DNA from: Alphaproteobacteria bacterium
GTDB taxonomy: Bacteria; Pseudomonadota; Alphaproteobacteria; Bin98
Direction of reading: 5' to 3'
Length of the DNA: 64,000 nt
NCBI GenBank assembly: GCA_965261615.1
Contig: OZ253461.1
Coordinates: 1,395,994-1,459,993 of the forward strand
A model generated the notes under the pieces. That model was not told where the DNA came from. It ran no database searches and was given only the letters and a program-made list of their open reading frames with translations. A program made the position numbers and the translations under genes. This document shows, one piece after another, positions 7,089-57,068 of this stretch; positions within the stretch are counted from its first letter, which is position 1, and every line of letters starts with the position of its first letter.

Positions 7089-8393
7089 TTATTCTTTCGT
7101 AGTTTGTGGCTTATCAGCCCCTTCTTCCTTAGCTTTTGCAGCGGCTGGTTTTGCCTTAGCCTTTGTTGCGGCTGGTTTTGCCTTAGCCTTTGTTGCGGCT
7201 GGTTTTGCTTCAGTGCTTTCTGTCTTAACCTTTGCAGCAGCTGGCTTTGCTTCAGTGCTTTCTGTCTTAGTCTTTGCAGCAGCTGGCTTTGCTTCAGTGC
7301 TTTCTGTCTTAGCCTTTGCAGCAGCTGGTTTTGCTTCAGCGCTTTCTGCCTTAGCCTTTGCAGCAGCTGGTTTTGCTTCAGCACTTTCTGTCTTAGCCTT
7401 TACAGCAGCTGGTTTTGCTTCAGCGCTTTCTGTCTTAGCCTTTGCAGCAGCTGGTTTTGCTTCAGCGCTTTCTGTCTTAGCCTTTACAGCAGCTGGTTTT
7501 GCTTCAGTGCTTTCTGTCTTAGCCTTTGCAGCAGCTGGTTTTGCTTCAGCGCTTTCTGTCTTAGCCTTTGCAGCAGCTGGTTTTGCTTCAGCGCTTTCTG
7601 TCTTAGCCTTTGCAGCAGCTGGTTTTGCTTCAGTCTGCTGCGCTTCCTCTTCTTCCTTAGCAGCTTCAGCAGCAACCTCTTCCTGCTGCACGCGCGTTGA
7701 CTCGTCGATCAACCCTTGCATAATTGCCGTTACAGCTTCACGGCAGTACATATCTACCGCACTAGCTGCATCATCATTACCTGGGATTGGATAATCAACA
7801 TATGTCGGGTCCGCGTTTGTGTCCACAATACCAACAACAGGAATTCCACAAATACGCGCCTCTTGAACAGCTAAAGCATCTTTGTGAGCGTCCAACACAA
7901 AAAGCATATTCGGCAAACCTCCCATACTTCTCAAACCACCGAACGAAAGGTCCAGCTTATTTAAGTCTCGTCGCATCAAAATAAGCTCTTTGTTCGTCAG
8001 GCCTTTACAAGCGCTAGGGTCTGCTAATGTTTTTTCTAAGTTTTCCATACGCCACAAGGACTTCTGAACTGTAGCCCAATTTGTAAGCGTACCTCCAAGC
8101 CATCTTTTGTTCACAAAGTGCTGACCACAGCGCTCTGCACCTTTTGCAACAACCTCTGAAGCCTGCTTTTTTGTTCCCACAAAAAGCACACGACCTCCTT
8201 GAGACACAACCTCTTGCATCGCATGCATGGCAACTGTTAGCATTTTAAAAGTTTGGCATAAATCTATGATATGCACCCCTGCTTTTTGGCCATATATATA
8301 AGGGCGCATTTTGGGGTTCCAGCGAGATACCTGGTGTCCAAAGTGCACACCAGCATTTAACATTTCATTTAGGGTGGTTGATAGTTTTCTCAT
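7089..8393 (-). CDS. rpsB: 30S ribosomal protein S2 with ~180-aa C-terminal Ala/Lys/Pro repeat extension
   Basis: The N-terminal ~250 aa are canonical S2 (LNAGVHFGHQVSRWNPKMRPYIYG...). They are followed by EEEE, then 10 tandem 14-aa units plus three shorter units, in frame and without stops. Confidence 0.93.
   Translation of the reverse strand: MRKLSTTLNEMLNAGVHFGHQVSRWNPKMRPYIYGQKAGVHIIDLCQTFKMLTVAMHAMQEVVSQGGRVLFVGTKKQASEVVAKGAERCGQHFVNKRWLGGTLTNWATVQKSLWRMENLEKTLADPSACKGLTNKELILMRRDLNKLDLSFGGLRSMGGLPNMLFVLDAHKDALAVQEARICGIPVVGIVDTNADPTYVDYPIPGNDDAASAVDMYCREAVTAIMQGLIDESTRVQQEEVAAEAAKEEEEAQQTEAKPAAAKAKTESAEAKPAAAKAKTESAEAKPAAAKAKTESTEAKPAAVKAKTESAEAKPAAAKAKTESAEAKPAAVKAKTESAEAKPAAAKAKAESAEAKPAAAKAKTESTEAKPAAAKTKTESTEAKPAAAKVKTESTEAKPAATKAKAKPAATKAKAKPAAAKAKEEGADKPQTTKE
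7128..7634 (-). repeat. In-frame tandem repeat: 10 x 42 bp (AEAKPAAAKAKTES) plus 3 shorter ~27-33 bp units (AKPAATKAK)
   Basis: Directly visible 42-bp periodicity on the plus strand (gctggttttgcttcagcgctttctgtcttagcctttgcagca...). Copies differ by a few point substitutions (A/T, A/V). Confidence 0.95.
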
Positions 8394-8607: not shown

Positions 8608-9450
8608 TTAAGCACACACTGAAACTATGTTTTTTATGGTCTCTTTCAGGCGAGTGCGCTCTACCACTAAATCGATCATTCCATGATCCCGCAAGTACTC
8701 TGACCGTTGAAATCCTTTTGGAAGTTTTTCAGATGTCGTGCCTTGAATAACACGCGCACCAGAAAAGGCCAAAAGTGCGACTGGCTCTCCCAAAGCGAAG
8801 TCTCCCAGCATCCCAAAAGAGGCCAACACCCCTCCCGTTGTTGGGTCACACAACACAGTAATATAAGGCAATGACTTAGCTCGCAGCTCATGCAGCGCAG
8901 CTGTTGTACGCACCATTTGCATAAGCGACAAAACACTTTCTTGCATACGGGCGCCACCAGATCCAGTAAACACAACAAACGGCAAGCCCCTTTCAACAGC
9001 AACACGAACGGCTGCAACAAAGCTCTCTCCCACTGCGCAGCCCATAGAACCTCCCATAAAGAAGAAGTCCAAAACTCCCACAACACACATCGCGCCATCA
9101 ATGCGGCCAACAGCGGCGGAAAAAGCATCCTCCTCTCCCGTTTTTTGGCGCGCCTGCGCTAATCGTTCTTGATAAGGCTTAATGTCAGCAAAACTCAAAG
9201 GATCGTCAGCACACTTAGGCATTGGCAGGCGCTCATACTCTCCACCATCAAAGGTAATGGCAAAGCGCTCATTTCTACCAATACGCATATGATGCCCACA
9301 ACAGGACAAAACCCACTGTCTGTTTGGAAGTTCATCTTTCGCAGTAACAGCAGAGCAGTTCGGGCATTTTTGCCAATTTGACGACTCATCATCAGTTCTT
9401 GGCCGAAAGCTTACAACACGCTTTGCGTGGTTATCTTTTATCCAGTTCAT
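8608..9450 (-). CDS. accD: Acetyl-CoA carboxylase carboxyltransferase beta subunit
   Basis: N-terminal Cys4 zinc ribbon (CPNCSAV...CCGHH) and a carboxyltransferase domain (GGSMGCAVGE, SGGARMQES). Confidence 0.93.
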   Translation of the reverse strand: MNWIKDNHAKRVVSFRPRTDDESSNWQKCPNCSAVTAKDELPNRQWVLSCCGHHMRIGRNERFAITFDGGEYERLPMPKCADDPLSFADIKPYQERLAQARQKTGEEDAFSAAVGRIDGAMCVVGVLDFFFMGGSMGCAVGESFVAAVRVAVERGLPFVVFTGSGGARMQESVLSLMQMVRTTAALHELRAKSLPYITVLCDPTTGGVLASFGMLGDFALGEPVALLAFSGARVIQGTTSEKLPKGFQRSEYLRDHGMIDLVVERTRLKETIKNIVSVCA

Positions 9451-9452
9451 AT

Positions 9453-10070
9453 TTATGTACGCTTATCGCGCAACAAAGTCGCATATTTATGATTTGCGTC
9501 TCTATGCGCTTCCTCTTCCGCAAGTATAACACAAACAACATCACTAAGCTTAGAATTTTTCTTCAGATCCCAGTATTCATAAGCGATTTTAGGGGCCGCA
9601 ACATTCTCTTCTGGAGAGCCCTCAAGATAGTGCAAGTATTCACGATAACTTGCCACAGCTTCCTCTTCCAAATAACCAACAAAGCGATGCGCAACAGTCG
9701 GCGCAAAAAGATAGAGCAGTGTATAAAAAAAGACAAAACCAAATTGCCCTAATTTTATGAACACCCACTCCACCGTGGTCGGCTCCGCGATCGCCTTAAA
9801 GGTCATGAGATGTTTATATTCATTATGCGCTTCATCCAAAAGGCTTTGTATCCATCCATGATCGTCTCGAATACGCCTTAAGCAAGAGAAGTGCAACAAA
9901 GCACCACCAACCATTCCCGGAATTCCCGCAACCGTCTCCAACACCAACGCATGGTGGGCATAACGCTTTTGAAAAAACCAATCCCTCGGTCGGCGCATTA
10001 ACCACACCATCCCCCAGGCAAATCGATCCCCGAAATTTTGCGGCTTATAATGCTTCATCTCTTCTTTCAT
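9453..10070 (-). CDS. aox: Alternative oxidase (cyanide-insensitive ubiquinol oxidase, AOX)
   Basis: All four di-iron motifs are present in order: LETVAGIPGMVGG, EAHNEYKHLMTF, HRFVGYLEEEAV and LAEEEAHRDANH. It is collinear with mitochondrial/trypanosomal AOX over essentially the whole length. Confidence 0.9.
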   Translation of the reverse strand: MKEEMKHYKPQNFGDRFAWGMVWLMRRPRDWFFQKRYAHHALVLETVAGIPGMVGGALLHFSCLRRIRDDHGWIQSLLDEAHNEYKHLMTFKAIAEPTTVEWVFIKLGQFGFVFFYTLLYLFAPTVAHRFVGYLEEEAVASYREYLHYLEGSPEENVAAPKIAYEYWDLKKNSKLSDVVCVILAEEEAHRDANHKYATLLRDKRT

Positions 10071-10095: not shown

Positions 10096-10656
10096 CTATT
10101 TGAAACACTTCGCGCTTAATAGAAAGCCCACAAAACACATCAGCAACATATAAATCCACTTCATTTTATCTACATGCCGCATAAGCCAATCTTTATAGCG
10201 CCCCTTATATCTTTTGGCGATATACGCGATAAGACAAAATCGCATCCCCCGCGCCACAAGAGTGCTCACAACAAAAAGCAAAAAGTTATAGCGGACAAAA
10301 CCAAAAACCATCACAACAATCTTAAACGGCAAGGGGATAAAGGACTTTAAAAGCATAGCCCAGCACCCATAGCGCTCAACAAACAAACATATTGTTTCGA
10401 ACTTCGCGCTAGCAGAATAAAAATTGATGATTTTTTCGCCACAAGACATAAAGGCAAAAGCCCCAAAGCAGTATCCCAGTATGCCGCCACACACAGATGA
10501 CAAAGACACTAACACCCACAGCATATGACGAATAGTTGGGTGTTTCCAAACAAACGTTGCTAACAGAGGGTCCACAGCAATGGGCAAAAATGCGCTTTCA
10601 CAAAAAGAAGTGACACATAGACTGATAACATCACGGCGTTGACTGGAAATTTGCAT
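10096..10656 (-). CDS. YqaA/DedA-family (SNARE-associated) inner membrane protein
   Basis: 186 aa from ATG 10656-10654 with 4-5 TM segments and DedA/YqaA-like features. The listed ORF start at 10809 runs through the tRNA-Leu gene and is rejected. Confidence 0.55.
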   Translation of the reverse strand: MQISSQRRDVISLCVTSFCESAFLPIAVDPLLATFVWKHPTIRHMLWVLVSLSSVCGGILGYCFGAFAFMSCGEKIINFYSASAKFETICLFVERYGCWAMLLKSFIPLPFKIVVMVFGFVRYNFLLFVVSTLVARGMRFCLIAYIAKRYKGRYKDWLMRHVDKMKWIYMLLMCFVGFLLSAKCFK

Positions 10657-10670
10657 AACTTTATAAGCGG

Positions 10671-10755
10671 TGGTACCCCCGGGGAGAGTCGAACTCCCAC
10701 ACCCTAAGATAGCAGATTTTGAATCTGCCGCGTCTACCAATTCCGCCACAGGGGC
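10671..10755 (-). tRNA. tRNA-Leu (anticodon CAA), long variable arm, CCA encoded
   Basis: The reverse complement GCCCCTGTGGCGGAATTGGTAGACGCGGCAGATTCAAAATCTGCTATCTTAGGGTGTGGGAGTTCGACTCTCCCCGGGGGTACCA is a type-II tRNA with anticodon loop TTCAAAA. Confidence 0.88.
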
Positions 10756-10762
10756 ACGGTAG

Positions 10763-10771
10763 ATTATAGCA
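10763..10771 (-). promoter_or_regulatory. Extended -10 element TGCTATAAT upstream of tRNA-Leu(CAA)
   Basis: The minus strand reads TGCTATAAT, and the last base of the hexamer is 8 nt from the mature tRNA 5' end. The predicted TSS is therefore about 1 nt upstream of the tRNA. Confidence 0.5.
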
Positions 10772-10833
10772 CATGAAAACTTAGCCGCGCAATAAAATTC
10801 ACAAGCCATCTAGCAAATCTTTTACTTAAATAC

Positions 10834-11018: not shown

Positions 11019-12911
11019 TCAGTTTTGATCATAGTTGGCCAATATGTCAGCATACTGGTCTTTTGGCTTTCCTCCGCCACCACGTCTACGGTTCCTTTTC
11101 CCGTCAGAATCCGGACGCACTCTGTTACCAGCGTTTTCATCGACCACCTTTTCTTTCGAAGGCGATACAACATTACCGATTTCATCATTTCCGGAAGGTT
11201 TGTTATTTTGGGGGTCCTGCCTTCGACCTCCGCGACCACCACTACCGCCAGAAGAAGACTTCTGCCCCCCACCATGCTCGTGTAACATCACAATCACTCT
11301 TGGGCGCTTTCCAGCGACACCCTCAATCCACTTACGTGTGTCAACACACAAGTAATGGGTTAATGTTTTCGGATGAGCGCCTTTGTGGTTCGCCACAATT
11401 TTGTGAATCATACCATTTAGATCTGATTGCAGAGAAGCATCCTCCCAAACACCCAGCTGCGCAGCGACGGCTTTTTCATATACCCCTTTCGCATTACGCA
11501 AAACAGAAATAGTCACCACACCATTTTTGGACATAGTTTCGCGCTCTTGCAGCACAGGACTGTCCAAATCAATATAGCGCTTCCCGTCCAAACCAAAAAC
11601 TTTAGCATCTGCGCTCATAACCATCTCAACATCATCACTGGAGCACTCATACAAGTGCCCATTTTTTGTATGCAAAGACTGTAGTTTTTTACCATTCGCA
11701 ACAATCTTGTGTTCCCCCAAGTGATAGTGCTCTCCGTGAACTGGCAAAACCATTTTTGGTTTCAGCCATTGATACATCGTTTCCACATCTTCTCGGCTTG
11801 GGTGCCCTGCCACGTGCACCATAATGTGCTCATTCGATATCACACGCGCACCCTTAAGGTTTAGGTTGTTTTTAAGCTCAGCAATTTTGCGCTCGTTTCC
11901 TGGAATATTTCTTGAGGAGAAAATCACGATATCCTCTTCCTTCAGAGACACAAATCGATGCGAGTCTGTGGACAGGCTCCACAGCGCGGCTCGATCTTCT
12001 CCTTGAGATCCAGAGCACACAAAAGCAACTTTCGCTGCAGGAAGGTCGGCCGCCTCTTGTGGTGACACCACCTCAGGAAAGTCAGCCAAATAGCCCAACT
12101 CTGAAGCTACAGCATATGTTTTCTGGAAAGAGCGCCCGAGCAAACAAAGCTTCCGCTTGTGTTTGCGCGCTGCCCGACCAACAGCCACCATACGGCCTAC
12201 ATTTGAAGCAAAGCATGACACAAAAATACGCTGCTTCTTATAATCTCCAAAAAGCTTCATTATGTTATCAGCCACATCTGTCTCTGTTCCAGTGGCCTCC
12301 ATAACGTTAATGCTAGTTGAGTCACAAACAAGCACATCCACACCTGTCTTTTTAACAAACTCTACATCCTTCGCAGTAGTAGGCTGTCCGATTACAGGGG
12401 CATTGTCTAAACGCCAGTCCCCTGTGTGAAACACCTTCACCTTAGGTGTGCGCAAATACACTCCTGAGGCATCTGGAATAGAGTGGTTTAAAGGAATAAA
12501 GCGCGCATTAAAGTGCTCAGAAATTTGCGTATCTTTTTGCCATTCCACCACACGAATGTCGTCCTCATTGAATGAAACACCATTATCATTAAACTGATAT
12601 TTTATCATCCCCGCTGTAAACGGTGTGGTGTAAATAGGGCAGCGAATATCCTTCCAAAAATACGGCAAGGCTCCCACGTGATCTTCGTGGGCATGCGTCA
12701 TAATACACGCCTTTAAGTTTTTCTTTAAATTTTTTACAATTGTATGATCGGGAAAAACCACATCCACACCAAACCCTGGGTTAAAACTTACTCCCCAGTC
12801 GACCATGATCCATTCTCCGCAATACCCATAAAGGTTGAGGTTTCGTCCTATTTGGCCCGCACCACTTATTGGCCAAAAATATAATTTATCTTCTCTTAAC
12901 TTTAATTTCAT
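11019..12911 (-). CDS. rnj: Ribonuclease J (metallo-beta-lactamase / beta-CASP RNase) with ~84-aa Gly/Arg-rich C-terminal tail
   Basis: HAHEDHVG zinc motif and beta-CASP architecture. The alpha-proteobacterial position after nuoN-birA fits. The C-terminal tail is GGGQKSSSGGSGGRGGRRQ...KRNRRRGGGGKPK. Confidence 0.85.
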   Translation of the reverse strand: MKLKLREDKLYFWPISGAGQIGRNLNLYGYCGEWIMVDWGVSFNPGFGVDVVFPDHTIVKNLKKNLKACIMTHAHEDHVGALPYFWKDIRCPIYTTPFTAGMIKYQFNDNGVSFNEDDIRVVEWQKDTQISEHFNARFIPLNHSIPDASGVYLRTPKVKVFHTGDWRLDNAPVIGQPTTAKDVEFVKKTGVDVLVCDSTSINVMEATGTETDVADNIMKLFGDYKKQRIFVSCFASNVGRMVAVGRAARKHKRKLCLLGRSFQKTYAVASELGYLADFPEVVSPQEAADLPAAKVAFVCSGSQGEDRAALWSLSTDSHRFVSLKEEDIVIFSSRNIPGNERKIAELKNNLNLKGARVISNEHIMVHVAGHPSREDVETMYQWLKPKMVLPVHGEHYHLGEHKIVANGKKLQSLHTKNGHLYECSSDDVEMVMSADAKVFGLDGKRYIDLDSPVLQERETMSKNGVVTISVLRNAKGVYEKAVAAQLGVWEDASLQSDLNGMIHKIVANHKGAHPKTLTHYLCVDTRKWIEGVAGKRPRVIVMLHEHGGGQKSSSGGSGGRGGRRQDPQNNKPSGNDEIGNVVSPSKEKVVDENAGNRVRPDSDGKRNRRRGGGGKPKDQYADILANYDQN

Positions 12912-12915
12912 AACA

Positions 12916-13605
12916 TTACAGGGTTATCCCCGCCTCCAAAACTAAACTTCCTGCAGCCAGCTCACATGTTTGTCCGTCTTTATCTAAAAGCGCGGACCCA
13001 TTCACACTAACTCCCAAAAACTTTCCGGCCTCTGTTGGCCAATTTACGCGCTCCACTTTTACAGAACGTCCAATCCACAAGCCATGCGCATTCCACTCTG
13101 CACAGCAACAATAAGGGTTCCCCAGGTATATCTGCCAATCTGCAAGCACTTTTTTTATAATCCCCCATTTGTCGAGCACAACCCCCGTTACAGAAGCCAA
13201 ACTTACAGCTCGATCAATCGGCGCGTACAACGCGTTGATTCCAAAGCCCAAAATCCATCGATTAGCGGCCCGCTCAAGCAGCATCCCGCCCACCTTTTGA
13301 TTTTGCACGAAGAGGTCGTTGGGCCATTTTATTGAAACATCACAAAAATTCCCAAGCGCTCTTCTTATAACAACACTTGCCGCCATAATCAGCACATTCG
13401 GACAAAGGTCACTTTGAAAAGCCACGCTGCAGTATATATTCCCCTGCGGTGACGACCATACACGACCGTACTGCCCTCTCCCTTCCGTCTGTGCCTCTGC
13501 CACAAGAGCAACTATGCTCCTATTTGAAAACGCTTGCAGTTCTTTAATTGCGCTCATAGTCGATGAGCAACTTTTTACAGCACTTAAGCCAATCTCTGCT
13601 AACAT
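12916..13605 (-). CDS. birA: Biotin--[acetyl-CoA-carboxylase] ligase, group I (no N-terminal HTH)
   Basis: GRGQYGRVWSSPQGNIY matches the GRGRxGRxWxSPxG biotin-binding signature. At 229 aa it has the catalytic and C-terminal domains only. Confidence 0.85.
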   Translation of the reverse strand: MLAEIGLSAVKSCSSTMSAIKELQAFSNRSIVALVAEAQTEGRGQYGRVWSSPQGNIYCSVAFQSDLCPNVLIMAASVVIRRALGNFCDVSIKWPNDLFVQNQKVGGMLLERAANRWILGFGINALYAPIDRAVSLASVTGVVLDKWGIIKKVLADWQIYLGNPYCCCAEWNAHGLWIGRSVKVERVNWPTEAGKFLGVSVNGSALLDKDGQTCELAAGSLVLEAGITL

Positions 13606-13710: not shown

Positions 13711-14853
13711 TCACCGCCATAGCCACATGAGCATGCCCGCCACCATAGACACGCCTTGCACCACGGCAACATACCATCGTTCGTCCCGCCAATTACGCAT
13801 AATATGAACTTTGATTTCAACGGAGACTAACACACAAATACAAAACAAACAGTAACACAATACCAGCCAGCGCAACGTAGGGGGCAAGTCACCCCACAAA
13901 GCACACGACCACACCAAAGGATGCCCCACAAGAGCACCACTAGCCACACAAAGCGTTAAAACCGCAAATTGATTCCACGACAACCAAGCTGCCATTGCCA
14001 ACATAACAAAGACATAGCTTATAACAGCTCCATAACCAATAAATGGTTCCAATAAAAACGACAGGCTCACCCCCTGTACAAACGCCACATGCGTCAAAAC
14101 TTTTTTTTCACGCCCTGACCCAAGCGACGCCACACCATAAAGAGCGGAAAAGATCATAAAGGCAGTCAGCCATTCTGAGGGCAAAATATAGCAAAATATA
14201 GGAACAGGAACCCAGTACAGCCACACTATATGAGGAAGGGGAACGTACTCCTCCAAAAGAGAGTATCTCATAAATGGCAGCGCTGACAGAAGAAGAGCTG
14301 CGCACACAAGAGTGATACTTAAAAAGTTGTTATCCACCACAGGAAACCAGGTCATACTGCTTGCAATAACCCATCGAAAAAGCGCCACACTTTGCAGCAT
14401 GAGACAGCCAAGAAGGCTTAATATAACAGCATAGCGATGAGCTGTCGCCATTTGACAGCGTAGCAAGACTATAAGAAACACAAGCAATACAGTGCTGATC
14501 ACATCACTCGGGGTCTGCAGCCACACACTAATAGCGGCTAAGAGAACCCATGCTCGCTCCAAACCTAAGGTTTGCAAAGGAAATATAGGCAAAAGAGCGA
14601 GCAACATCAAAGCCCTTCCCTCGGGAAGGCTACCCCACACACCCTCACAGACTATCGCCGGCGCCATGCCGGCATACCAAATAATATTTTGAGCGCTCTT
14701 AACCAACCTGTGCAAAGAAAAGGTGTGCAGCAACCAAGAGACGCACACCCCCACCACTGAAACAACCTCAATAAACATAAGACCCCACCACCCTTCGAGC
14801 CATGCTATAAAGCAAAGCCAGTCTTTCATCCAAGTGCACACCACAAATGACAA
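13711..14853 (-). CDS. nuoN: Truncated, highly divergent antiporter-like complex I subunit (NuoN position)
   Basis: Last gene of the nuo array, directly before birA as in other alphaproteobacteria. It is a polytopic membrane protein of 380 aa. There are relics of the Mrp/Nuo motifs (PLPHIVWLYWVP resembles aPfHxWxPD; KKVLTHVAFVQGVSL resembles KRLLAYSSIxHxG). Confidence 0.45.
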   Translation of the reverse strand: MSFVVCTWMKDWLCFIAWLEGWWGLMFIEVVSVVGVCVSWLLHTFSLHRLVKSAQNIIWYAGMAPAIVCEGVWGSLPEGRALMLLALLPIFPLQTLGLERAWVLLAAISVWLQTPSDVISTVLLVFLIVLLRCQMATAHRYAVILSLLGCLMLQSVALFRWVIASSMTWFPVVDNNFLSITLVCAALLLSALPFMRYSLLEEYVPLPHIVWLYWVPVPIFCYILPSEWLTAFMIFSALYGVASLGSGREKKVLTHVAFVQGVSLSFLLEPFIGYGAVISYVFVMLAMAAWLSWNQFAVLTLCVASGALVGHPLVWSCALWGDLPPTLRWLVLCYCLFCICVLVSVEIKVHIMRNWRDERWYVAVVQGVSMVAGMLMWLWR

Positions 14854-15655
14854 AAACAGTCAGCCAAGCTAATGAGACTCGCATATCATTTTTGCGCAGC
14901 GGCGCTAAGCTAATCCAAACAGCCAAAAAAGCATAAAATGCCTGGAGGTCACGCGCACCACAAACAGCAGACATTCCCACCAGCAAAACGCTCACAAAAA
15001 TACTGCCATAACTCACTCTATTTTTTTCCAAATACACGTGCTGCCAGTACAGCGCTCCCGCAAAGTACGCCGCCATGGACCACCCAAGATCGCCTGCAAA
15101 GCTTGAGCCCACAAAAAAAGCGGACAAAAGCCCGGCTCCTACCCAAGATTTACCTTGCGTGACATTACCGGAAAAGCTTATCACAGCCAAGACACCCATC
15201 ATCTTCCAACATGTGACAGCAGGCAAAAACGCCAAACACTGCAGCTGCAAAAGGCTCGCAACCCTTTCTATAATATATGCACTGCCATCCCTTAAACACT
15301 CCAAAGCCGCAAATAGAGCCCAGCAAAAAAGAACCGCATAGCAAGACTGTCCTGGATGCAGCATCGCAAAATAGAAGCTTAAAAAAAACAACAGAACACA
15401 CCGCAAATACGCAGCTCCATTAGACAGGCCATGAACAGCCCAAGCACAAAAAACACATACGGCGATAAAATGCACATATAGCCAGCTGGATCCCAGAAAA
15501 AACTTGCATACAGGAAAAGCGGCCAACAAAAAGGTAAACGCCGCCCAAATAAACGCACGCTGAGAAATCAAAAAGCATGCATACACTGCTGGTAAGCTTC
15601 CTTGTAGTACACTATCCCACACAAACATAGGACCTCCAACCACACAACACTCCAA
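14768..15655 (-). CDS. nuoM: Truncated, highly divergent membrane subunit at the NuoM position
   Basis: The call rests on position between the NuoL-like and NuoN-like genes. It is polytopic and only 295 aa, against about 500 aa for canonical NuoM. No clear motifs were seen by eye. Confidence 0.3.
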   Translation of the reverse strand: MECCVVGGPMFVWDSVLQGSLPAVYACFLISQRAFIWAAFTFLLAAFPVCKFFLGSSWLYVHFIAVCVFCAWAVHGLSNGAAYLRCVLLFFLSFYFAMLHPGQSCYAVLFCWALFAALECLRDGSAYIIERVASLLQLQCLAFLPAVTCWKMMGVLAVISFSGNVTQGKSWVGAGLLSAFFVGSSFAGDLGWSMAAYFAGALYWQHVYLEKNRVSYGSIFVSVLLVGMSAVCGARDLQAFYAFLAVWISLAPLRKNDMRVSLAWLTVFVICGVHLDERLALLYSMARRVVGSYVY

Positions 15656-16760
15656 TCAACAAAAGCACCAACAATACACCGCCCACATAATCATGCTGAC
15701 GATACCTCACGATTTTAGACTGCACCGTTGTCAACAATTTTTCTACAAAGTTATCCCCACTCTTAATAGCACGCCACCAACTAAAAGACAGTGGGCGCAC
15801 TTTTAACATATACCCCCCCATTACCGCAGCGCTATAAAACAGCCCAAATCCCAAGCCTTGTCCTAGCTTCACCTTCTGCAGCAACCAAAGAGAGCTCAGC
15901 GTAAACCCACCGTACAACAACACCATGGCCAAAAGCAAAAAAAACATTTTAGAAAACCTCACCTGAGTCTCTGGCTGCTCATAACTCCACCGGCACAAAA
16001 GACGCCCATGCACCATACCGCACCCTGCGAGCATAATCAATTGATGCAGTCGATCAAAGTGACTCACATCACTTTTACATAAGAGCGGAATAAACACCCC
16101 ACCAGCAGCAATCCACAAGCTAACCATACTGGATATTTTAATTGCTTTCCGCATTTGTGCAGAGTGAAAGCTCAACCCTTGCGCAAAGGGAATAAGCAGC
16201 ACTGACATCAGCCAACACACCCAACCTCCTTTCACCCCACCTGAGCACGGCAAAAGCTGCCCAAGTACGCAAGCTTGCGAAATGGCAGCGTATCGTAAAG
16301 TCCACAGCGGGCAGCACATCGCCCAAACAGTCAAAATCCCCTGCAGCCACATCATCTGTGGAACATACATAAATTGGCAAGCATAAGGCAAAAAGTTAAG
16401 CAAGCAAACAGCATACCAGCTAACAAAAACAGCACTCCACGCATGCTGCTCGCGCGGCAAACAATACGCCCCCAGCATCACTACCCAGAACACGTGTCCC
16501 AATGGAAGCTTTCCAAAAGCACAGCCCACCCCCACAAATAGAGCGATCACCCAAATCAGTAAAAACGCACCCACAATACGTGGCAAAAAGCACAAAAAGT
16601 ACCCTAAACTGACCCAGGATGCCCAAGGCACAGGCAGAAAAAGTATGCTCGCTGACCCCAAAGCCCAAAATGCTTTTTCCCACATTTTTTTCGCACAAGC
16701 AACAGCCCACAGCGAAACAAACACCGCACACACTACTGCGTAGTACGGGGCCGCTATCAT
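15612..16760 (-). CDS. nuoL: Truncated, highly divergent antiporter-like subunit at the NuoL position
   Basis: Polytopic, 382 aa, against about 600 aa for canonical NuoL. There are relic motifs (GKLPLGHVFWVV resembles GKSAQxPLHxWLP; MRKAIKISSMVSL resembles DxKKxLAYSTxSQL). It overlaps the nuoK-like stop by 4 nt. Confidence 0.4.
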   Translation of the reverse strand: MIAAPYYAVVCAVFVSLWAVACAKKMWEKAFWALGSASILFLPVPWASWVSLGYFLCFLPRIVGAFLLIWVIALFVGVGCAFGKLPLGHVFWVVMLGAYCLPREQHAWSAVFVSWYAVCLLNFLPYACQFMYVPQMMWLQGILTVWAMCCPLWTLRYAAISQACVLGQLLPCSGGVKGGWVCWLMSVLLIPFAQGLSFHSAQMRKAIKISSMVSLWIAAGGVFIPLLCKSDVSHFDRLHQLIMLAGCGMVHGRLLCRWSYEQPETQVRFSKMFFLLLAMVLLYGGFTLSSLWLLQKVKLGQGLGFGLFYSAAVMGGYMLKVRPLSFSWWRAIKSGDNFVEKLLTTVQSKIVRYRQHDYVGGVLLVLLLIGVLCGWRSYVCVG

Positions 16761-17035
16761 TTAGAAGACCTCTGACATTTTGTTAACAATACAAGGCTCA
16801 CCAAAAAGTAGCTAATGCTTATAAGAAGCGTTATTAAGCTTGCTCCGCCTTCTTGGCCACTCGTCAACACCACAACCACAACTCCCAAACTCACAATTTG
16901 AGAAAAAAATATACGTGTCACTCCTCGTTTGCCCCAAATCAAACCTAAAAGACCCAAGAGTATAATTAGCACACCACCCACTTCACACCTCCTCTTGCTA
17001 ACCCTTTTGTAATTTAGACAGCAGGGCATCAACAT
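16757..17035 (-). CDS. nuoK: NuoK-like small membrane subunit (divergent)
   Basis: Three predicted TM helices, size and position fit NuoK. GLLGLIWGKRGVTRIFF resembles GLxGxxxRRNxIxxLM. The real start is possibly the GTG at 16981. Confidence 0.4.
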   Translation of the reverse strand: MLMPCCLNYKRVSKRRCEVGGVLIILLGLLGLIWGKRGVTRIFFSQIVSLGVVVVVLTSGQEGGASLITLLISISYFLVSLVLLTKCQRSSK

Positions 17036-17435
17036 AATAAGATCCTACGCCCAACAAAATAAAAACTAACATCCAAATCCATTGGACATTATGAAGTAAA
17101 ACTTCTGTATACGGTCCCACACTCACAGCAGGAAGCTCAAAAATGTCAGGCCTCCAAAGCACCCCAGCTGCACCAAGAAGCCAAACCACAAATCGCGTGA
17201 TTCGGCCCTTAGGGTCAAAAAAATCTTGCTCCTGATCCAGCACAAACTCAAGCAAAGAAATAAAGGCCCCCAACGTCACCAAGCTTACAAAAAATACACC
17301 GACCTGATATAGGGCTCCCACTCCCACAAGAACCATCAGCACCCCAAGGCGCATAAACGCAGCTGCACCATGAAGCATCAGCATGCCTCCCACAATTATT
17401 TTTGTGATCCCCAGCCACCAAAAACACTCCGTCAT
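16998..17435 (-). CDS. nuoJ: NuoJ-position membrane subunit (divergent, short)
   Basis: The call is positional, between nuoI and the nuoK-like gene. It is a 145-aa hydrophobic protein. Confidence 0.3.
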   Translation of the reverse strand: MTECFWWLGITKIIVGGMLMLHGAAAFMRLGVLMVLVGVGALYQVGVFFVSLVTLGAFISLLEFVLDQEQDFFDPKGRITRFVVWLLGAAGVLWRPDIFELPAVSVGPYTEVLLHNVQWIWMLVFILLGVGSYYVDALLSKLQKG

Positions 17436-17444
17436 TTTCCTGCC

Positions 17445-17756
17445 TTATGTCCGTACATTTTTTTCAGAAGTAGGCGAAACCTCACAAGGAGTCTCTACAG
17501 TAAACTCAAGTGCATCAACTGGACATGATTGAACGCAAAGATCACAGTGCAAACAGCGGTTCATGTCTACATCCAACCTGGCAAGTTGCGGCAAGCCATC
17601 CACTATATAACCCTCTATCTGAATAGCATTTACTGGGCACACATTCGCGCAAATACCGCAAGTAACACACTTTTCTTTTTGTGTATGAGCATACCGCTTC
17701 ACAGAAAGTGTGTAAACCTCCGGTTTAGAACTTTGCAAGACTTTATTCTGTTTCAT
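17445..17756 (-). CDS. nuoI: NuoI-like 2x[4Fe-4S] ferredoxin subunit (short, 103 aa)
   Basis: Two complete CxxCxxCxxxCP motifs (CVTCGICANVCP and CLHCDLCVQSCP) with NuoI-like spacing, and the correct position in the operon. Confidence 0.7.
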   Translation of the reverse strand: MKQNKVLQSSKPEVYTLSVKRYAHTQKEKCVTCGICANVCPVNAIQIEGYIVDGLPQLARLDVDMNRCLHCDLCVQSCPVDALEFTVETPCEVSPTSEKNVRT

Positions 17757-18508: not shown

Positions 18509-20574
18509 ACACCTCTTCTTTTCACTGCCGAGTCTTTATATATTTTTTGCATTTTGATGGAATTTTTCGCCACGATGTTGGGAACGCTCGAAGGATACTC
18601 TTCCGGAATCCAGGCGTCACTCAGCTGTATCACTGTACTCCCCAGTGACGATGAGCTCAATCGCTTTTCTCCCTTTTTTCCAAAGTGCGTTTCATATAAA
18701 CTTTGCACGTAACTTGTTAGCTGATCTCGACTACGCGCTTGATAATGCGAATTACATAAACGAATAATTTCCTGCAAAATCCAGACATCATCACGGACGT
18801 TGTGACGAGGGTTTGTCACTTTTTCAGTACACTTGAGCTGTCCTTCTGCATCAACATAAGAGCCCGCATGTTCTGTATGAACTTCACTAGGCATAATCAC
18901 TTGCGCTCCTCTGTATACGGCATCATCATGCGTACCCTGCAGCACCACCAATGTATCTTCACGCCAAAAACTCTTTTCTGGATAGTATCCAATACACCAT
19001 AGCCCCTTCAAGTAGCCTTGAGCAACTGCATCCTTAATCCCCGCGCTTGTAAGGCCTTGGTCTTGCGTAAGTGACTTTATATCCAAGCCCTGTATAGTGT
19101 TAGCGCAAAGTGGAACAAAAGCAATTGGCGCCCAATTGGCGGTTTGATTATAACGCGCGGCAATTTTGCGAATCATACCCCACACAATATTTGCATGTCC
19201 ATCACACACAACATGCTCCCCACAAATGAACAGAGGTTTTTTAGCATTACGTAACGCTGAGGCAAGAACGCCTCTTCCTTGCGCTAACTGCGTCAGGTGC
19301 AGCCGATCTCGCCCAACACACTGCGCATACTCCGTTGTTCCAAACGAGCCTAAGGAAAATATTGGCCCTCTCTTTTCATTACGATACCGCACCAACAGCG
19401 TGTGTAAAATAGGCATATCATAAAGCGGCGCCGCCCCCACAAGAATAATCGCATCCGCACACAATACTCTATCTAAGGGCCCTCCAAACGTATAATCTCG
19501 CGTTTCCTCTTGGAAAGTGGCGGGGTAATGTCCTGCATTAAGCGCACAATGCTTGATACCAACTTCTTGCATAAGAATCGACAAGGTCACCAACGTTTCT
19601 GCATCCACAAAGGGTCCCACAAGAACTCCAACGTTGCCCCAGCCAATTTTTTGAAATTGCTCCACAGCATAGGACAGAATACTCTCCCAACTCACGATTT
19701 TTCCAAAACCTTGCTCACGCACCTCTGGGGCTTGCACTCGATTTAAAACCAAACCATCCAAAGAAAAGCGAGCCCTATTGGACAACCATCGATATGGCAC
19801 TTTCTGAGGAGGCCTCACATCAACTATATAGCTTTCAAAGCGACGCCACACCAAAGGCGTTAGGGCAGCATCTTGCAGATCAAATCCAGGCACCTCCTGC
19901 ATCACGGAGCCAGACCACACTCTATCCGGCACAAGCGCACCCGACGGACAAATTTCCAGCAAGTTTCCTGAAAACACGGAAGGCGCATTCTGCTCTCCCA
20001 AGACACTCACGCCAGTGTCGCGTGAAAGCTCAAGCATCGGAAGGCCTACATTATTTTTATAAAACTCCACGCAAAGCTGACAGTGCATGCATCGCGTTGG
20101 AACCGCGCGCATTACAACATCCAAAGGCGCAGGCGGTGTCATGGACTCGTCCCTCACTCGCTGCTCACCACACGCTTTGTTGTTAGCCACTGCATTACCC
20201 AGCATATGATTATATTTTTTTTCTGACAAAGCGGCATCATTGGGCTGGTTACTAGCAATCAAGATCAACGCCTTTTGTCGAGCAGTCATTGCATCTTTAT
20301 GCTTTATAGAAACCTTTACGCCAGGCATATTGGCCATAGTGCATGCTAACAGCACCTTTTTTGACCGCATGCAGTATACGTGACAAGCACCTGCACACGA
20401 AGGGGCCTCTAACTCGTTGTAAAAACAAAAGTTTGGCAAAACTCCTTTAGCTTGCAGAGCAGACCCCAGCCGCTTCAAGTCCTCTCTAACAACCACAGGT
20501 TTTCCATCAATATATACAGTATGCTTCACAACAAATCTATCTCCGAAAGCCCTAGCAACCCCTTTGTCACCCAC
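18502..20574 (-). CDS. nuoG: NADH-quinone oxidoreductase subunit G-like (divergent)
   Basis: N-terminal 2Fe-2S-like Cys cluster (FCFYNELEAPSCAGACHVYC), RCMHCQLCVEF plus ICPSGAL (N4-type 4Fe-4S), then a molybdopterin-oxidoreductase-like body. The HxxxCxxCxxxxxC (N5) segment is replaced by NQPNDAALSEKKYNH. Confidence 0.72.
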   Translation of the reverse strand: MGDKGVARAFGDRFVVKHTVYIDGKPVVVREDLKRLGSALQAKGVLPNFCFYNELEAPSCAGACHVYCMRSKKVLLACTMANMPGVKVSIKHKDAMTARQKALILIASNQPNDAALSEKKYNHMLGNAVANNKACGEQRVRDESMTPPAPLDVVMRAVPTRCMHCQLCVEFYKNNVGLPMLELSRDTGVSVLGEQNAPSVFSGNLLEICPSGALVPDRVWSGSVMQEVPGFDLQDAALTPLVWRRFESYIVDVRPPQKVPYRWLSNRARFSLDGLVLNRVQAPEVREQGFGKIVSWESILSYAVEQFQKIGWGNVGVLVGPFVDAETLVTLSILMQEVGIKHCALNAGHYPATFQEETRDYTFGGPLDRVLCADAIILVGAAPLYDMPILHTLLVRYRNEKRGPIFSLGSFGTTEYAQCVGRDRLHLTQLAQGRGVLASALRNAKKPLFICGEHVVCDGHANIVWGMIRKIAARYNQTANWAPIAFVPLCANTIQGLDIKSLTQDQGLTSAGIKDAVAQGYLKGLWCIGYYPEKSFWREDTLVVLQGTHDDAVYRGAQVIMPSEVHTEHAGSYVDAEGQLKCTEKVTNPRHNVRDDVWILQEIIRLCNSHYQARSRDQLTSYVQSLYETHFGKKGEKRLSSSSLGSTVIQLSDAWIPEEYPSSVPNIVAKNSIKMQKIYKDSAVKRRGVW

Positions 20575-21674
20575 TTACTATACTGGCATATACACACATC
20601 ACGCGCCATGCGCGCCGCATATACAGCCGCGCCAACATCACCGCCATACAAGGCATTCTGCACTGCTGGCAACCCCTCACGGCATCCCACACAGTACCCA
20701 CTTCGCTCTTCCACCACAAAGTCCATAAACATTTGCACCATTCTCAGTAGGTCAGAAGATTTTGAAACTATCAAAATATCTCCCGACCGAATAGTCGTAT
20801 TAAGCTTTTGCATAGCGCTTTCACACAACACCGCTTTTTCCGCAACCGTTACCACGAGAGGTTTGGACAAAAGTCCTCCCGGAAATACACATCGAACATT
20901 AGACCATACACCCCTCACGCCACCTGCATATTTTTCAACCGCTGCCACCAAACCTTCTCCAACAGCAACCTCCACAACTTGCGGGTTAACGACCTCACCA
21001 CTTATAGCAACGATTTGCCGTGCATTTTTTTTCCACCAGTCGGCACCATTGACGCAGATAGTCGGGACACACAAGAAGGTTTCCGCAGCGCCCATAAGAA
21101 CTTTTTCGCCATAAAGTGTGCTCGGAGCAGGATTATGCACTTGATCGCTTTCTAAATGTCGCAACACCGCTTCATCTTCTGCTCCCCCCAAAAACCCTCC
21201 ACTTAATCGTATATGCACTAATATTTTCAGGGGAGACGCAGGTCCAATTACACCTCGCTCAATAGCCTGATCTCTTATTTGAACAAGTTTTTGATAATGC
21301 GCGATCAGTGCTCCATGTACAACTATACAAACATAGCGGGCTTTGACTGCAAGCGCCACTAATAGCGCCCCCTCCACGACGTTTTCTGGAGCCTGCCACA
21401 CAATAGCGGCCTCCTTTTTCTGCCCCCAAAAGCACTCCGCTGTATTAACTACAACACCTGCATAGTCTGATGTGGTGCGCAGTTTTTCTGAAAATTCCCC
21501 GCCACGCATACCACGATTCTCAAGCCCGCTGTTAACAAGCGTATCGTACACATAGTCCTTGCGTGTCATTAGCTTACGAAAAACCTCAAAGCCTTCTGGC
21601 GTAGCAAGCTGCGACAACATTTTCTTCATATCTACTAATCTTACCAACTTTCTGTTAGTAACTCCAGGGCACAA
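20526..21674 (-). CDS. nuoF: NADH-quinone oxidoreductase subunit F-like (divergent)
   Basis: Collinear with NuoF. NRGMRGGEFSEK stands for RGRGGAGFPTG, LSGGFLGGAEDEAV for GAGAYICGEETAL, and ERSGYCVGCREG for ESCGxCxPCREG. Confidence 0.72.
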   Translation of the reverse strand: MCPGVTNRKLVRLVDMKKMLSQLATPEGFEVFRKLMTRKDYVYDTLVNSGLENRGMRGGEFSEKLRTTSDYAGVVVNTAECFWGQKKEAAIVWQAPENVVEGALLVALAVKARYVCIVVHGALIAHYQKLVQIRDQAIERGVIGPASPLKILVHIRLSGGFLGGAEDEAVLRHLESDQVHNPAPSTLYGEKVLMGAAETFLCVPTICVNGADWWKKNARQIVAISGEVVNPQVVEVAVGEGLVAAVEKYAGGVRGVWSNVRCVFPGGLLSKPLVVTVAEKAVLCESAMQKLNTTIRSGDILIVSKSSDLLRMVQMFMDFVVEERSGYCVGCREGLPAVQNALYGGDVGAAVYAARMARDVCICQYSKWVTKGLLGLSEIDLL

Positions 21675-21682
21675 ACCCTCAC

Positions 21683-22099
21683 CTACACCTTAACTTTTTC
21701 ATCTTGAAGAAAAATAACTGGGCTGCTTTCGCACATCCCTAAGCAGCTATACTCTATGGATAGGTGCCCTAAATCAAGATGATCCCGCAGCCACTTTTGG
21801 TGTTTGTCTTTATTAGGACAAGAACTGCAGGTCATTCCGGCACAAACACGAACAACCGGCAACCCACCTGTATATCTCAAAGACGGGTTCTTTGCTATAC
21901 ATGCCCAAATCACTATAGGCTCTATTTGCAGCACTTCTGCAAGATTCAAAACCTGCTCTTCACAAATACCTAGGTCATTTTGCATTAATACTAAAATATC
22001 GTAAAGAATATTATCATCACGAGAAATTCTTTGCGTATTAACAATTTTATCCACTTTTTGTAAAAATGACTTCCACATACCCCTACCGATCCAGCTCAC
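21683..22099 (-). CDS. nuoE: NADH-quinone oxidoreductase subunit E-like (2Fe-2S thioredoxin-like ferredoxin)
   Basis: Cx4C...Cx3C pattern (VCAGMTCSSC ... SCLGMCESSP) and the correct position between nuoCD and nuoF. Confidence 0.7.
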   Translation of the reverse strand: MSWIGRGMWKSFLQKVDKIVNTQRISRDDNILYDILVLMQNDLGICEEQVLNLAEVLQIEPIVIWACIAKNPSLRYTGGLPVVRVCAGMTCSSCPNKDKHQKWLRDHLDLGHLSIEYSCLGMCESSPVIFLQDEKVKV

Positions 22100-23618
22100 T
22101 CATTGACAAACCCATAGACGCCGCCATGACAGGCAAATCTTCCTCTTCTACATCCTTTGCAAGAGAATTTATTAAAAAAGCAAGAGACAAGCTACTAGAG
22201 CGCATTTTCACACAAGAAGGGTAACTTCCTCCTCCCACCATAAGCATACTCACCACACCATTGGGTCCTTCCACGCAAGAGATGTGCTCTCCTTGATAAA
22301 AAATACCTTCTCGATAAAAATGCATATGCTGCATCATAGCTGTATTTTCTTGCCAAATCTTTTGATAGTCTGTCATAGCCCAACTTGTAGGGTTAGAAAA
22401 ATCAAGATCGGAGAGAGCAACAAGACCTTGGTTTAAGATACTTAAGCTTACTCGCACATCTTCAATCAACACTTGCGCACGAGTATATGCACACCCTTTC
22501 TCCTCCACAGGAAGGCTATACTGACACTCCACATAAGCGTCATAAGGCCTTTTCACACGCCAATCAAAGGCACAGCCGGTTGCGCGCAACACGGGGCCAG
22601 TCACGCCTAACGCAAGAGCTTCTTGGCTTCCGACAACACCAAGACCCGCCATCCTTTTGTGGACCATATCTCGAGAAAAAGCTTGTTGAACCTTTTGGAA
22701 AAATGTTGTAGCTACTTGCTCAAACTTTTGATGCAGGCTATATACATGCTCACTCATGGCGTGATGCACCCCGCCCGGACAAATAAAGTACCCTCGAAAC
22801 TCTGATTTAAGAGCTCCTAGCGCCCTCCGATAACTGCTATACAGATCCTCCCACCCAACACGACGACGATAACCAACACTCTCAAGAATTTGCATGAGGG
22901 TTGCTCCAGAGTAATAAATCCGAGATCCTTCTAACAGCACTATTCGTAACCATTTACTATATGGTGGCACTGTAATATTCAAACAGCCCTCCATATGCAA
23001 AGCGTAATTATGTTCATGAACAAAAGGCGTAGCAGCGCTCCAGCGCCCCATATACACCAACCCCTGAAGGTATGTTTTTGTGCGTAGGTGTTTTTCCCAC
23101 TGCCGTGCAAAAAAGCCAGGTTGCACATACGCACTCTTTATTTTTCCGTTCAGCTTTTGACCGCGCATAACACACACACCGCGCTCACTTGCATAAGGCC
23201 AAATCATTTTTTCAAACTCATTCTCTGCACACTCTCCTGGATAAAGGACGCTATGTTCCCACATATCCAAGAAGTTTACTTGATAACTTTCATACACCTC
23301 TTTTTGCAAGATTAAGGAGTTTTTGAAAAATGTATGCAGACTCACAATCGGAGCTCCAGACCATTTAAAACTTACACAATATATTTGTGCTGTAGCAGTT
23401 TCAAGAAACGTATAATACAAATAGCGACAATCCTCCTCTGCTCTTACCGCAATATCCAGCAAAAGATCCACTCCAATTTCAAGGCTTGTCAGCTTTTGGA
23501 TAACATCAAAAAACGACTTTTGCGCTATTCGCACAAATATATTATCTTGATGGGCAAACACACTCATTTTTTTATGATTTAAGCTTTTTATTGCTTTAAT
23601 TTTTATCGCAATCATCAA
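22083..23618 (-). CDS. nuoCD: Fused NuoC-NuoD subunit (divergent, 511 aa)
   Basis: The N-terminal third is NuoC-like (LILQKEVYESYQVNF resembles WxEREvxDmfGixF). The remainder is collinear with NuoD (GFFARQWEKHLRTKTYLQGLVYMGRW resembles GyLHRGxEKlxExxtyxQxxpyxDRl). The C-terminus MSELDR resembles the canonical ...GEVDR. Confidence 0.75.
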   Translation of the reverse strand: MMIAIKIKAIKSLNHKKMSVFAHQDNIFVRIAQKSFFDVIQKLTSLEIGVDLLLDIAVRAEEDCRYLYYTFLETATAQIYCVSFKWSGAPIVSLHTFFKNSLILQKEVYESYQVNFLDMWEHSVLYPGECAENEFEKMIWPYASERGVCVMRGQKLNGKIKSAYVQPGFFARQWEKHLRTKTYLQGLVYMGRWSAATPFVHEHNYALHMEGCLNITVPPYSKWLRIVLLEGSRIYYSGATLMQILESVGYRRRVGWEDLYSSYRRALGALKSEFRGYFICPGGVHHAMSEHVYSLHQKFEQVATTFFQKVQQAFSRDMVHKRMAGLGVVGSQEALALGVTGPVLRATGCAFDWRVKRPYDAYVECQYSLPVEEKGCAYTRAQVLIEDVRVSLSILNQGLVALSDLDFSNPTSWAMTDYQKIWQENTAMMQHMHFYREGIFYQGEHISCVEGPNGVVSMLMVGGGSYPSCVKMRSSSLSLAFLINSLAKDVEEEDLPVMAASMGLSMSELDR

Positions 23619-23628: not shown

Positions 23629-23976
23629 TTATAGATAATTGGATAAATGCATAAGCATATTTTTCACGGTGTCCTGGCTTATCACACCTGTACGCCAAAT
23701 TAAATTAGGTTGAAACTCCCAACGTTCTCGACACGCCTCATCATCCATACCACAGGGAAGCGGAAGGCCTATGAGCCCCACAAGCTTAGGGTCTTGCAGC
23801 TGACTATACACTTTATGAAGCAAACCAACCATGCCTTTTGTGACCATACCAACCACGATCAAAACGTTTGCTTCAGAAGGCTGACAAATATTTCGCGGTA
23901 TCGAGTGCAACTCATCGCTTACCCCATTAAAAACAAATGGCACCAAAACCCCCCGGCGCACCGTTTTTTTAAACAT
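23629..23976 (-). CDS. nuoB: N-terminally truncated NuoB-like subunit (115 aa)
   Basis: PSEANVLIVVGMVTKGMVGLLHKVYSQLQDPKLVGLIGLPLPCG aligns with [44 protein letters not shown]. An in-frame stop at 24025-24027, with no ATG/GTG/TTG in between, rules out a longer N-terminus. Confidence 0.65.
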   Translation of the reverse strand: MFKKTVRRGVLVPFVFNGVSDELHSIPRNICQPSEANVLIVVGMVTKGMVGLLHKVYSQLQDPKLVGLIGLPLPCGMDDEACRERWEFQPNLIWRTGVISQDTVKNMLMHLSNYL

Positions 23977-24214
23977 GCTTTTTTTCCCCCAAAGACCATA
24001 GTTTATACACGGTGTATAAGAAAACTAAAACAGCAAGCAACCCCGTCAGTAGAGGAGTCGTTATTTCATGACAACCTATAAGGGCATAACTTATAAAGCC
24101 ACCTATTATAGAAAACACAACTGCAACTAGCATAATGGACCTTTCAAACATATCGCTCCTCCATCTAATTGTACCTAAAAAAAACACAAAAAGTGCAGTT
24201 TTTATAAAGTCCAA
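23969..24214 (-). CDS. nuoA: NuoA-position small membrane protein (81 aa, TTG start in the listed ORF)
   Basis: First ORF of the array, with two to three hydrophobic segments, overlapping nuoB by 8 nt. The assignment is positional only. Confidence 0.3.
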   Translation of the reverse strand: MDFIKTALFVFFLGTIRWRSDMFERSIMLVAVVFSIIGGFISYALIGCHEITTPLLTGLLAVLVFLYTVYKLWSLGEKKHV

Positions 24215-24272: not shown

Positions 24273-24350
<78 letters not shown>

Positions 24351-55637: not shown

Positions 55638-55656
55638 CCCCGGCGCAAACAAGAAG

Positions 55657-55683: not shown

Positions 55684-55694
55684 TGGTCCTCTAA

Positions 55695-57038: not shown

Positions 57039-57068
57039 AAGTCATTTTATCAAGAAAAACTCAAAAAG

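Follow-up and report, generated by a model that had tools for sequence, protein, structure and literature searches.

What becomes of respiratory complex I when the subunit that should hold its N2 iron–sulphur (Fe–S) cluster no longer carries the ligands for it? The question is raised by a NuoB-like protein of 115 amino acids (aa) encoded on the minus strand at 23629-23976 of the window, by which we mean the whole 64,000-nucleotide stretch of alphaproteobacterial DNA (contig OZ253461.1) analysed here. Few proteins are as conserved as the core subunits of complex I, and N2 is considered indispensable. An earlier note on this locus had described a truncated NuoB homolog lacking three of the four N2 ligands and had concluded that canonical NADH:quinone electron transfer looked impossible; it had also proposed that the ORF be aligned to Pfam Oxidored_q6 and compared with orthologs from related genomes. 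The locus is a new degenerate form of the known complex I system, and the degeneration is more extensive than that note saw. We propose, with a probability of roughly 60%, that the protein would be a cluster-less, structural NuoB in a relic of complex I which has ceased to reduce quinone and is kept by selection.

The ORF stands as first described, being the second gene of a minus-strand nuo array. A TAG lies in frame 5′ of its ATG at 24025-24027, none of the 16 intervening codons is ATG, GTG or TTG, and GGGGGA directly precedes the ATG, which overlaps the stop codon of the ORF in the nuoA position by 8 nt (ATGTTTAA), a junction typical of translational coupling. The central block of the protein (PSEANVLIVVG...KVYSQLQDPKLVGLIG) aligns with the matching block of canonical NuoB, as the earlier note had maintained, and comparisons of several kinds bear this alignment out. 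Residues 32-70 match Pfam Oxidored_q6 (PF01058) at 15 bits (E 0.021), which falls below the curated cut-off of 27 bits, and the single ortholog that we found (P0122, introduced below) gave no match when scanned against Pfam. The same block matches the canonical NuoB of Paracaedibacteraceae (Holosporales) by BLASTP at E 3e-7; a two-sequence profile of the window protein and its ortholog, searched against all PDB chains, has as its 41 best matches only NuoB, PSST, NdhK and MbhJ (best E 8e-5); and hhalign against a pair of canonical NuoB sequences gives a probability of 92% (E 6.5e-7) over residues 6-75. The 115-aa protein is a NuoB homolog and not a chance resemblance. Canonical NuoB has 167-179 aa vs. 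115 aa in the window, and the shortening comprises ~24-36 residues at the N-terminus, 13 that followed the CC loop and small pieces of the C-terminus.

The N2 ligands themselves are gone, albeit not quite in the manner first supposed. The N-terminal segment with the tandem cysteines, which the earlier note took to be absent, lies inside the ORF: the beta1 strand and the CC loop both exist, RRGVLVPFVFNGVSDEL aligning column for column with canonical QAGSLWPMTFGLACCAVEM, and both the alignment and hhalign put Ser20-Asp21 at the tandem-cysteine columns and Pro13 on a conserved Pro, where the ortholog reads PCC in the loop. At the third ligand column (GSCANGG) the window protein has Pro72, and Cys75 aligns with Gly114, three columns downstream. 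The fourth (PGCPP) aligns with RTGVI, with Gly-Val instead of CP, a placement that rests on MAFFT and on SVCPTNSE in the ortholog; here the alteration of the GCPP position that had been claimed is indeed found, the alignment reading TGV. The loss of ligands therefore holds, but three of four was an undercount: with a Pro in the third column and C75 out of register, 0/4 are kept. The cysteines that remain are C31, C75 and C82, and the ortholog shares only C82, which is the non-ligand Cys of the RGCDRI motif common to canonical alphaproteobacterial and mitochondrial NuoB and in our reading marks ancestry. Such a protein should be unable to bind N2 canonically and probably holds no cluster, which makes canonical NADH:quinone electron transfer implausible.

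The surrounding array comprises 13 genes (24151-13711, minus strand) in the canonical order A-B-CD-E-F-G-H-I-J-K-L-M-N, with C and D fused and the genes tight and overlapping, and the NuoB-like gene sits where nuoB belongs, between the nuoA-position ORF and nuoCD. The members are listed below; for the hydrophobic ORFs the labels nuoH to nuoN are positional only, and ‘polytopic’ rests on a crude hydropathy count that merged transmembrane segments badly.

23969-24151, minus strand: small hydrophobic two-helix ORF in the nuoA position, 60 aa from an ATG at 24151 with a GGAGGAG Shine-Dalgarno sequence (the mechanical ORF reaches a TTG at 24214)
23629-23976, minus strand: NuoB-like subunit, 115 aa, without any N2 ligand in register
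22083-23615, minus strand: NuoC-NuoD fusion, 510 aa, with the C part shortened (Complex1_49kDa, 2e-40)
21683-22099, minus strand: NuoE-like, 138 aa, likely start at the ATG at 22078, canonical C-terminal ~80 aa missing
20526-21674, minus strand: NuoF-like, 382 aa
18502-20574, minus strand: NuoG-like, 690 aa
17819-18508, minus strand: hydrophobic ORF in the nuoH position, 229 aa vs. 334-342 in canonical NuoH
17445-17756, minus strand: NuoI-like, 103 aa, N-terminal ~45 aa missing
16998-17435, minus strand: hydrophobic ORF in the nuoJ position, 145 aa vs. ~202 in canonical NuoJ
16757-17035, minus strand: hydrophobic ORF in the nuoK position, at most 92 aa
15612-16760, minus strand: polytopic membrane ORF in the nuoL position, 382 aa vs. 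~643 in canonical NuoL
14768-15655, minus strand: polytopic membrane ORF in the nuoM position, 295 aa
13711-14853, minus strand: polytopic membrane ORF in the nuoN position, 380 aa, with the conserved part from Met26 (~14778)

The hydrophobic ORFs are 30-45% shorter than their canonical counterparts and are unrecognisable as Nuo subunits. They had no match in Pfam or among solved structures (profile search of the PDB, E up to 10), and against canonical NuoA, H, J, K, L and M all hhalign probabilities were <1%. Thus the nuoA-position ORF showed no similarity to canonical NuoA by hhalign, the nuoL-position ORF had no Proton_antipo_M match in Pfam, and the best hhalign partners of the nuoJ- and nuoK-position ORFs, although these were NuoJ (E 0.079) and NuoK (E 0.086), were not significant. 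In place of the NuoH and the three antiporter-like subunits (Proton_antipo_M) of complex I, only hydrophobic ORFs fill the expected positions. A biotin/lipoate-ligase-family gene (12916-13605) and then RNase J (11019-12911, minus strand) follow 3′ of the array; the RNase J translation ends in a Gly/Arg/Ser-rich, low-complexity C-terminal tail of ~100 aa.

Cofactor sites in the other subunits, read from alignments to a canonical Paracaedibacteraceae operon, are kept or lost cluster by cluster. All four Cys of N1a are retained in NuoE, all eight of N6a and N6b in NuoI, where both CxxCxxCxxxCP motifs are intact, and the ligands of N1b and N4 in NuoG. In the same NuoG, N5 has kept none of its four ligands (canonical HPLDCPICDQGGEC corresponds to QPNDAALSEKKYNH in the window). 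NuoF has three of the four canonical N3 ligands, the first Cys being replaced by Ser, with a CxC at the fourth ligand; in its FMN/NADH site NADESEPG has become NTAECFWG, replacing Asp94 and Glu97. This CxC is present in the NuoF-like proteins of both the window (VCIC; 20526-21674, minus strand) and the relative described below (CDC; 8631-9734), and may represent a compensatory ligand swap.

The quinone site of NuoCD has fared no better. Its loop PQHPATHG reads PGECAENE, with both His of HPxxHG gone; FDRLDY has become GRWSA, so that the equivalent of Thermus Tyr87 is Ala195; and HRGxEK has become ARQWEK. Both residues to which quinone-binding roles in NuoD have been ascribed, His38 and Tyr87 (Thermus numbering; PMC4758237), are thus missing. 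Neither is the Fe–S chain N3-N1b-N4-N5-N6a-N6b-N2 continuous, with 0/4 ligands at N5 and 0/4 in register at N2. By its sequence, then, the path from NADH to quinone is broken at at least two points, N5 in NuoG and N2 in NuoB, and the quinone pocket appears dismantled; without N5 the gap between N4 and N6a is presumably too long for physiological tunnelling, going by known complex I structures. The implausibility of canonical NADH:quinone transfer, which the earlier note had drawn from N2, is strengthened by these losses at N5 and the quinone site and by the lack of any recognisable NuoH, L, M or N. There is good support for the view that the complex would have neither a canonical N2 nor NADH:quinone function.

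Whether so reduced a protein is anything more than a local accident depends on its occurrence elsewhere. A HMMER search of 1.84 billion representative proteins returned one true NuoB-like homolog, P0122 (118 aa, matched over its full length, E 1.6e-10); a second match was a spurious repeat protein. A word-indexed search of 5.8 billion proteins returned the window's own protein only, and exact-peptide pattern scans of GTDB genomes and JGI metagenomes, which are weak negatives, found no further family member. P0122 is encoded on a 53-kb metagenome contig in ENA (hereafter L001), in a collinear operon of 13 genes whose products measure 59-118-511-129-367-673-226-121-150-75-327-258-363 aa. It has the same truncated architecture as the window protein, and its gene has the same 8-nt overlap with the small ORF that precedes it (ATGGATAA), which rules out a sequencing error.

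Identities between window and L001 are 34-37% for the NuoB-like protein, 35% for NuoCD, 44% for NuoE, 41% for NuoF, 44% for NuoG and 43% for NuoI, and 19-29% for the membrane ORFs; outside the operon they are 67-68% for prolyl-tRNA synthetase (ProRS), 51% for LolC, 55% for LolD and 86% for MlaE. Silent sites between the two genomes are saturated: at 980 four-fold degenerate sites 29-30% are identical, vs. a chance expectation of 27.9%. By this divergence, sequence evolving neutrally would have been scrambled and riddled with stops; all 13 reading frames of the array are open in both genomes. Saturated silent sites, peripheral subunits that are still 35-44% identical and intact ORFs together argue for purifying selection, and for a truncated design that was ancestral to both lineages and has been kept by it. 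This selection is weaker on the nuo array than on housekeeping genes.

The two genomes differ in how far the losses have gone. The relative keeps the CC pair of N2 (INAPCCGRH), which is Ser-Asp in the window, and the fourth N2 Cys (VCPTNSE), which is Gly-Val in the window; it keeps all N5 ligands (HPNACPVCEKKETC) where the window has none, as well as the second His of the NuoD loop (PQDKAPHE) and the HRGxE motif, both lost from the window. Common to the two are a Pro in place of the third N2 ligand, the loss of the Tyr87 equivalent, the replacement of the NuoF Asp and Glu, and the loss of the first N3 ligand, with CxC at the fourth. These common losses suggest an ancestor in which canonical quinone reduction was already impaired, the window lineage having then gone further. 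The constraint evidently falls on the scaffold and on clusters needed for folding (N1a, N1b, N4, N6a and N6b), not on the complete wire.

Synteny between the window and L001 extends 5′ of the operon. Directly upstream is the gene of a 774-aa protein (24363-26687, minus strand; counterpart at L001 3576-5849, plus strand, 41.5% identical). The N-terminus of this protein resembles a signal peptide, long regions of it are acidic, rich in Lys, Glu and Ala and coiled-coil-like, and it has no Pfam match. A tRNA-Met gene on the opposite strand (24273-24349) separates its gene from the operon in the window. Shared farther upstream (window 26826-29953, L001 596-3579) are a GNAT acetyltransferase gene, an ORF of ~255 aa on the opposite strand and one more ORF, uncharacterised, whose product has 424 or 516 aa.

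Within the window, the degeneration is specific to nuo. Against a canonical Thalassobaculum operon, Pfam scores fall from 100 to 15 bits for NuoB, from 165 to 14 for NuoC, from 182 to 22 for NuoE and from 167 + 115 to 33 + 22 for NuoF, and NuoH scores 439 bits there vs. no match here. Between Holosporales and Rhodospirillales, canonical NuoD retains 75% identity and NuoB 77%, whereas the window NuoCD is ~29% identical to its best matches, which are alphaproteobacterial. Genes outside the array score normally: ribosomal protein S2 at 4.7e-84, EF-Ts at 2e-55, MlaE at 6e-75, TatD at 5.5e-70, and ProRS at 3e-164 to the short alphaproteobacterial type. As this ProRS has ~53% identity to the enzymes of Odyssella, Bealeia, Paracaedibacteraceae and other alphaproteobacteria, the organism branches deeply within the Alphaproteobacteria and may be related to Holosporales. 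The replicon, 1,465,401 bp long, is that of a reduced genome. GC skew is strongly negative throughout positions 1-64000 (-0.06 to -0.30 in 2-kb windows) at ~45% GC, with most genes on the minus strand, as would fit a genome that is strongly strand-biased and probably host-restricted.

How might such an assembly still be of use? The 115-aa protein would be a minimised, cluster-less descendant of alphaproteobacterial NuoB, whose retained beta-alpha-beta core is the part that would pack against NuoD and NuoI in complex I. Its most likely task is structural, bridging NuoCD and NuoI to the membrane ORFs in an assembly that would no longer be a proton-pumping NADH:quinone oxidoreductase and whose membrane arm would be shortened. 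The truncated design would predate the split from the L001 lineage and have been under purifying selection since, its genes not being pseudogenes. The remaining Fe–S sites (N1a, N3, N1b, N4, N6a and N6b) may be kept because the subunits need them to fold, or because the N-module by itself still carries out a truncated redox reaction, and the quinol pool would be fed by some other dehydrogenase. A more tentative extension, which we hold to be a little less probable than even, is that a full complex I has here been turned into a redox-crippled assembly with a new, non-respiratory function, lacking N2, N5 and a quinone site and having a remodelled, shortened membrane arm, and is maintained by selection, probably in a host-associated lineage.

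Several observations weigh against this proposal. An AlphaFold2 model of the NuoB-like protein, made from the two-sequence alignment, has the beta-alpha-beta pattern at low confidence (pLDDT 50.6), and Foldseek with this model reached no significant match (best E 0.23), although its top matches include E. coli NuoB, NdhK and PSST chains and the first two are NuoB chains. The claim of conservation comes from two lineages and a single pairwise comparison, in which dN/dS is not estimable because silent sites are saturated. C31, C75 and C82 could in principle hold a non-canonical cluster. Finally, an intact alternative oxidase (AOX) is encoded 3.6 kb beyond the end of the nuo array:

9453-10070, minus strand: AOX, intact, 205 aa (Pfam AOX, 1.1e-64)

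It matches solved mitochondrial and trypanosomal AOX chains at E ~1e-37 and has the di-iron motifs LETVAG, NE..HL, LEEEA and EE.HR. AOX is a non-proton-pumping quinol oxidase, uncommon in bacteria, and its presence implies a quinol pool in the cell and thus the need for some quinone reductase.

Among the alternatives, the one that the degenerate state of the operon itself invites is neutral decay: the array might be a non-functional relic that has yet to be deleted. Its divergence is massive and nuo-specific, catalytic residues are gone from several subunits, and the reduced genome (1.47 Mb) has intracellular bacteria as its nearest named relatives by ProRS. We nonetheless consider decay unlikely, since 13 ORFs (~10.4 kb) have stayed open and collinear in both genomes, and peripheral subunits recognisably alike, despite saturated silent sites; since no Cys has changed among the eight of NuoI, the four of NuoE and those of N1b and N4; and since the time needed to replace four N5 and three N2 ligands would have brought stop codons to a neutral operon.

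Just as unlikely, in our estimation, is that the array is a diverged paralog with a new role while respiration is left to a canonical nuo operon at another place in the genome. Some alphaproteobacteria do carry two nuo operons, and the window covers 64 kb of the 1.47-Mb genome. Yet a second 14-gene operon would be unlikely in so small a genome; the array is followed by the biotin-ligase-family gene and RNase J, which we take to be the usual neighbours of nuoN in alphaproteobacteria; and no other protein of the same replicon is among the 120 NuoD matches listed, which is weak evidence.

It is a shade less probable again that the complex is still an NADH:quinone oxidoreductase, using non-canonical ligands (e.g. 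C31, C75 and C82) or some other route, and feeds AOX. The quinol pool that AOX implies is the chief argument for this, along with the retention of most Fe–S sites and the possible ligand swap in NuoF, where CxC is found in both genomes. We rate it low because, of the cysteines that might serve as replacements, the ortholog has only C82, a residue that is a non-ligand Cys in canonical NuoB (RGCDRI). Moreover, the loss of N5 should leave, going by known structures, an over-long tunnelling gap between N4 and N6a, the equivalents of Tyr87 and His38 are lost, and there are no recognisable NuoH or antiporter-like subunits in the operon.

Lastly, a sequencing or assembly artefact, or a very recent frameshift that truncated a normal nuoB carrying the CC pair, for which the homopolymer runs flanking the start codon (G5A7 and A7) might have spoken and which the earlier note had named as grounds for dropping its reading, is effectively refuted, since no upstream frame codes for NuoB-like sequence, the CC-loop segment is inside the ORF and deletions are internal as well as terminal, and a distant ortholog, assembled independently, agrees with the window gene in length, start and 8-nt overlap. 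The related suggestion that the upstream ORF supplies the missing segment fails too: that ORF is a two-helix membrane protein, and there is no NuoB sequence in any frame. Frame inspection and the 8-nt overlap in L001 rule out both a frameshift restoring a longer NuoB and a contribution from the upstream ORF.

The structural, cluster-less NuoB that we favour can be set against known systems. From canonical NuoB/Nqo6/PSST (NDUFS7; PF01058) the window protein has inherited its place between the nuoA-position ORF and nuoCD, a recognisable central block (...KVYxQMxxP), the beta1 strand (GSLWPxTF) and the non-ligand Cys of RGCDR; unlike it, it is only 115 aa long, has no N2 Cys in register, lacks the N-terminal extension and the 13 residues after the CC loop, and falls under the Pfam threshold (15 vs. 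about 100 bits for canonical NuoB). The operon as a whole most resembles the 14-gene alphaproteobacterial nuo operon (Nuo13 type if C and D are fused) in gene order, gene overlaps, the N-module and NuoD, from which it differs in having lost N5, N2 and the quinone-site His and Tyr, in the replaced acidic residues of the FMN/NADH site, and in its shortened, unrecognisable membrane ORFs.

Partial retention of complex I has a precedent: Trichomonas hydrogenosomes keep homologs of the 51-kDa and 24-kDa subunits for a different redox role. There, too, a part of complex I is retained after NADH:quinone activity has been lost, but it consists of two soluble subunits, whereas the window operon has all 13 positions, membrane ORFs included. 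A likeness in concept only is offered by the Ehr complexes, complex-I-family assemblies that, as cited in PMC4758237, lack expected catalytic or cofactor ligands, implying a non-canonical function. As far as that citation describes them, Ehr are ancient hydrogenase-like lineages without NuoEFG, while the window operon would be a secondary degeneration of a full alphaproteobacterial complex I; the operon does not belong with Ehr or the group 4 hydrogenases, given that NuoE, F and G are present, that NuoD best matches alphaproteobacterial proteins and that the RGCDR Cys is retained. In the literature on Holospora and Holosporales genomics, Hepatobacter, Holosporaceae AOX and complex I surveys, we found no such operon described. 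Related endosymbionts without complexes III and IV, some of them also without I and II, have been reported (George et al., bioRxiv 10.1101/719211).

A few further features of the window are recorded here. The ribosomal protein S2 ORF (7089-8393, minus strand, 434 aa) has its S2 domain at residues 11-227, followed by a C-terminal extension of ~200 aa. Five consecutive ORFs on both strands at 53626-58917 (324, 346, 447, 176 and 431 aa) have no Pfam match, and those of 447 and 431 aa have no NCBIfam match either. The 5′ part of a mechanical ORF of 237 aa (10096-10809, minus strand) is probably non-coding, because it overlaps a tRNA-Leu(CAA) gene (10671-10755) on the same strand.

If the more tentative extension is correct, no earlier case would exist in nature of a complex I retained after loss of the cluster that defines its chemistry, and the two genomes would capture successive steps of cofactor loss. 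Taken with the nearby AOX, the operon points to respiration of an unusual kind, one that pumps no protons, in an organism of reduced genome. For genome annotation, metabolic reconstructions that score complex I as present or absent with hidden Markov models would misclassify such genomes either way. For the family as a whole, the operon is a natural experiment on which parts of complex I serve assembly or stability and which serve catalysis, and it may show how the complex I scaffold can be reused.

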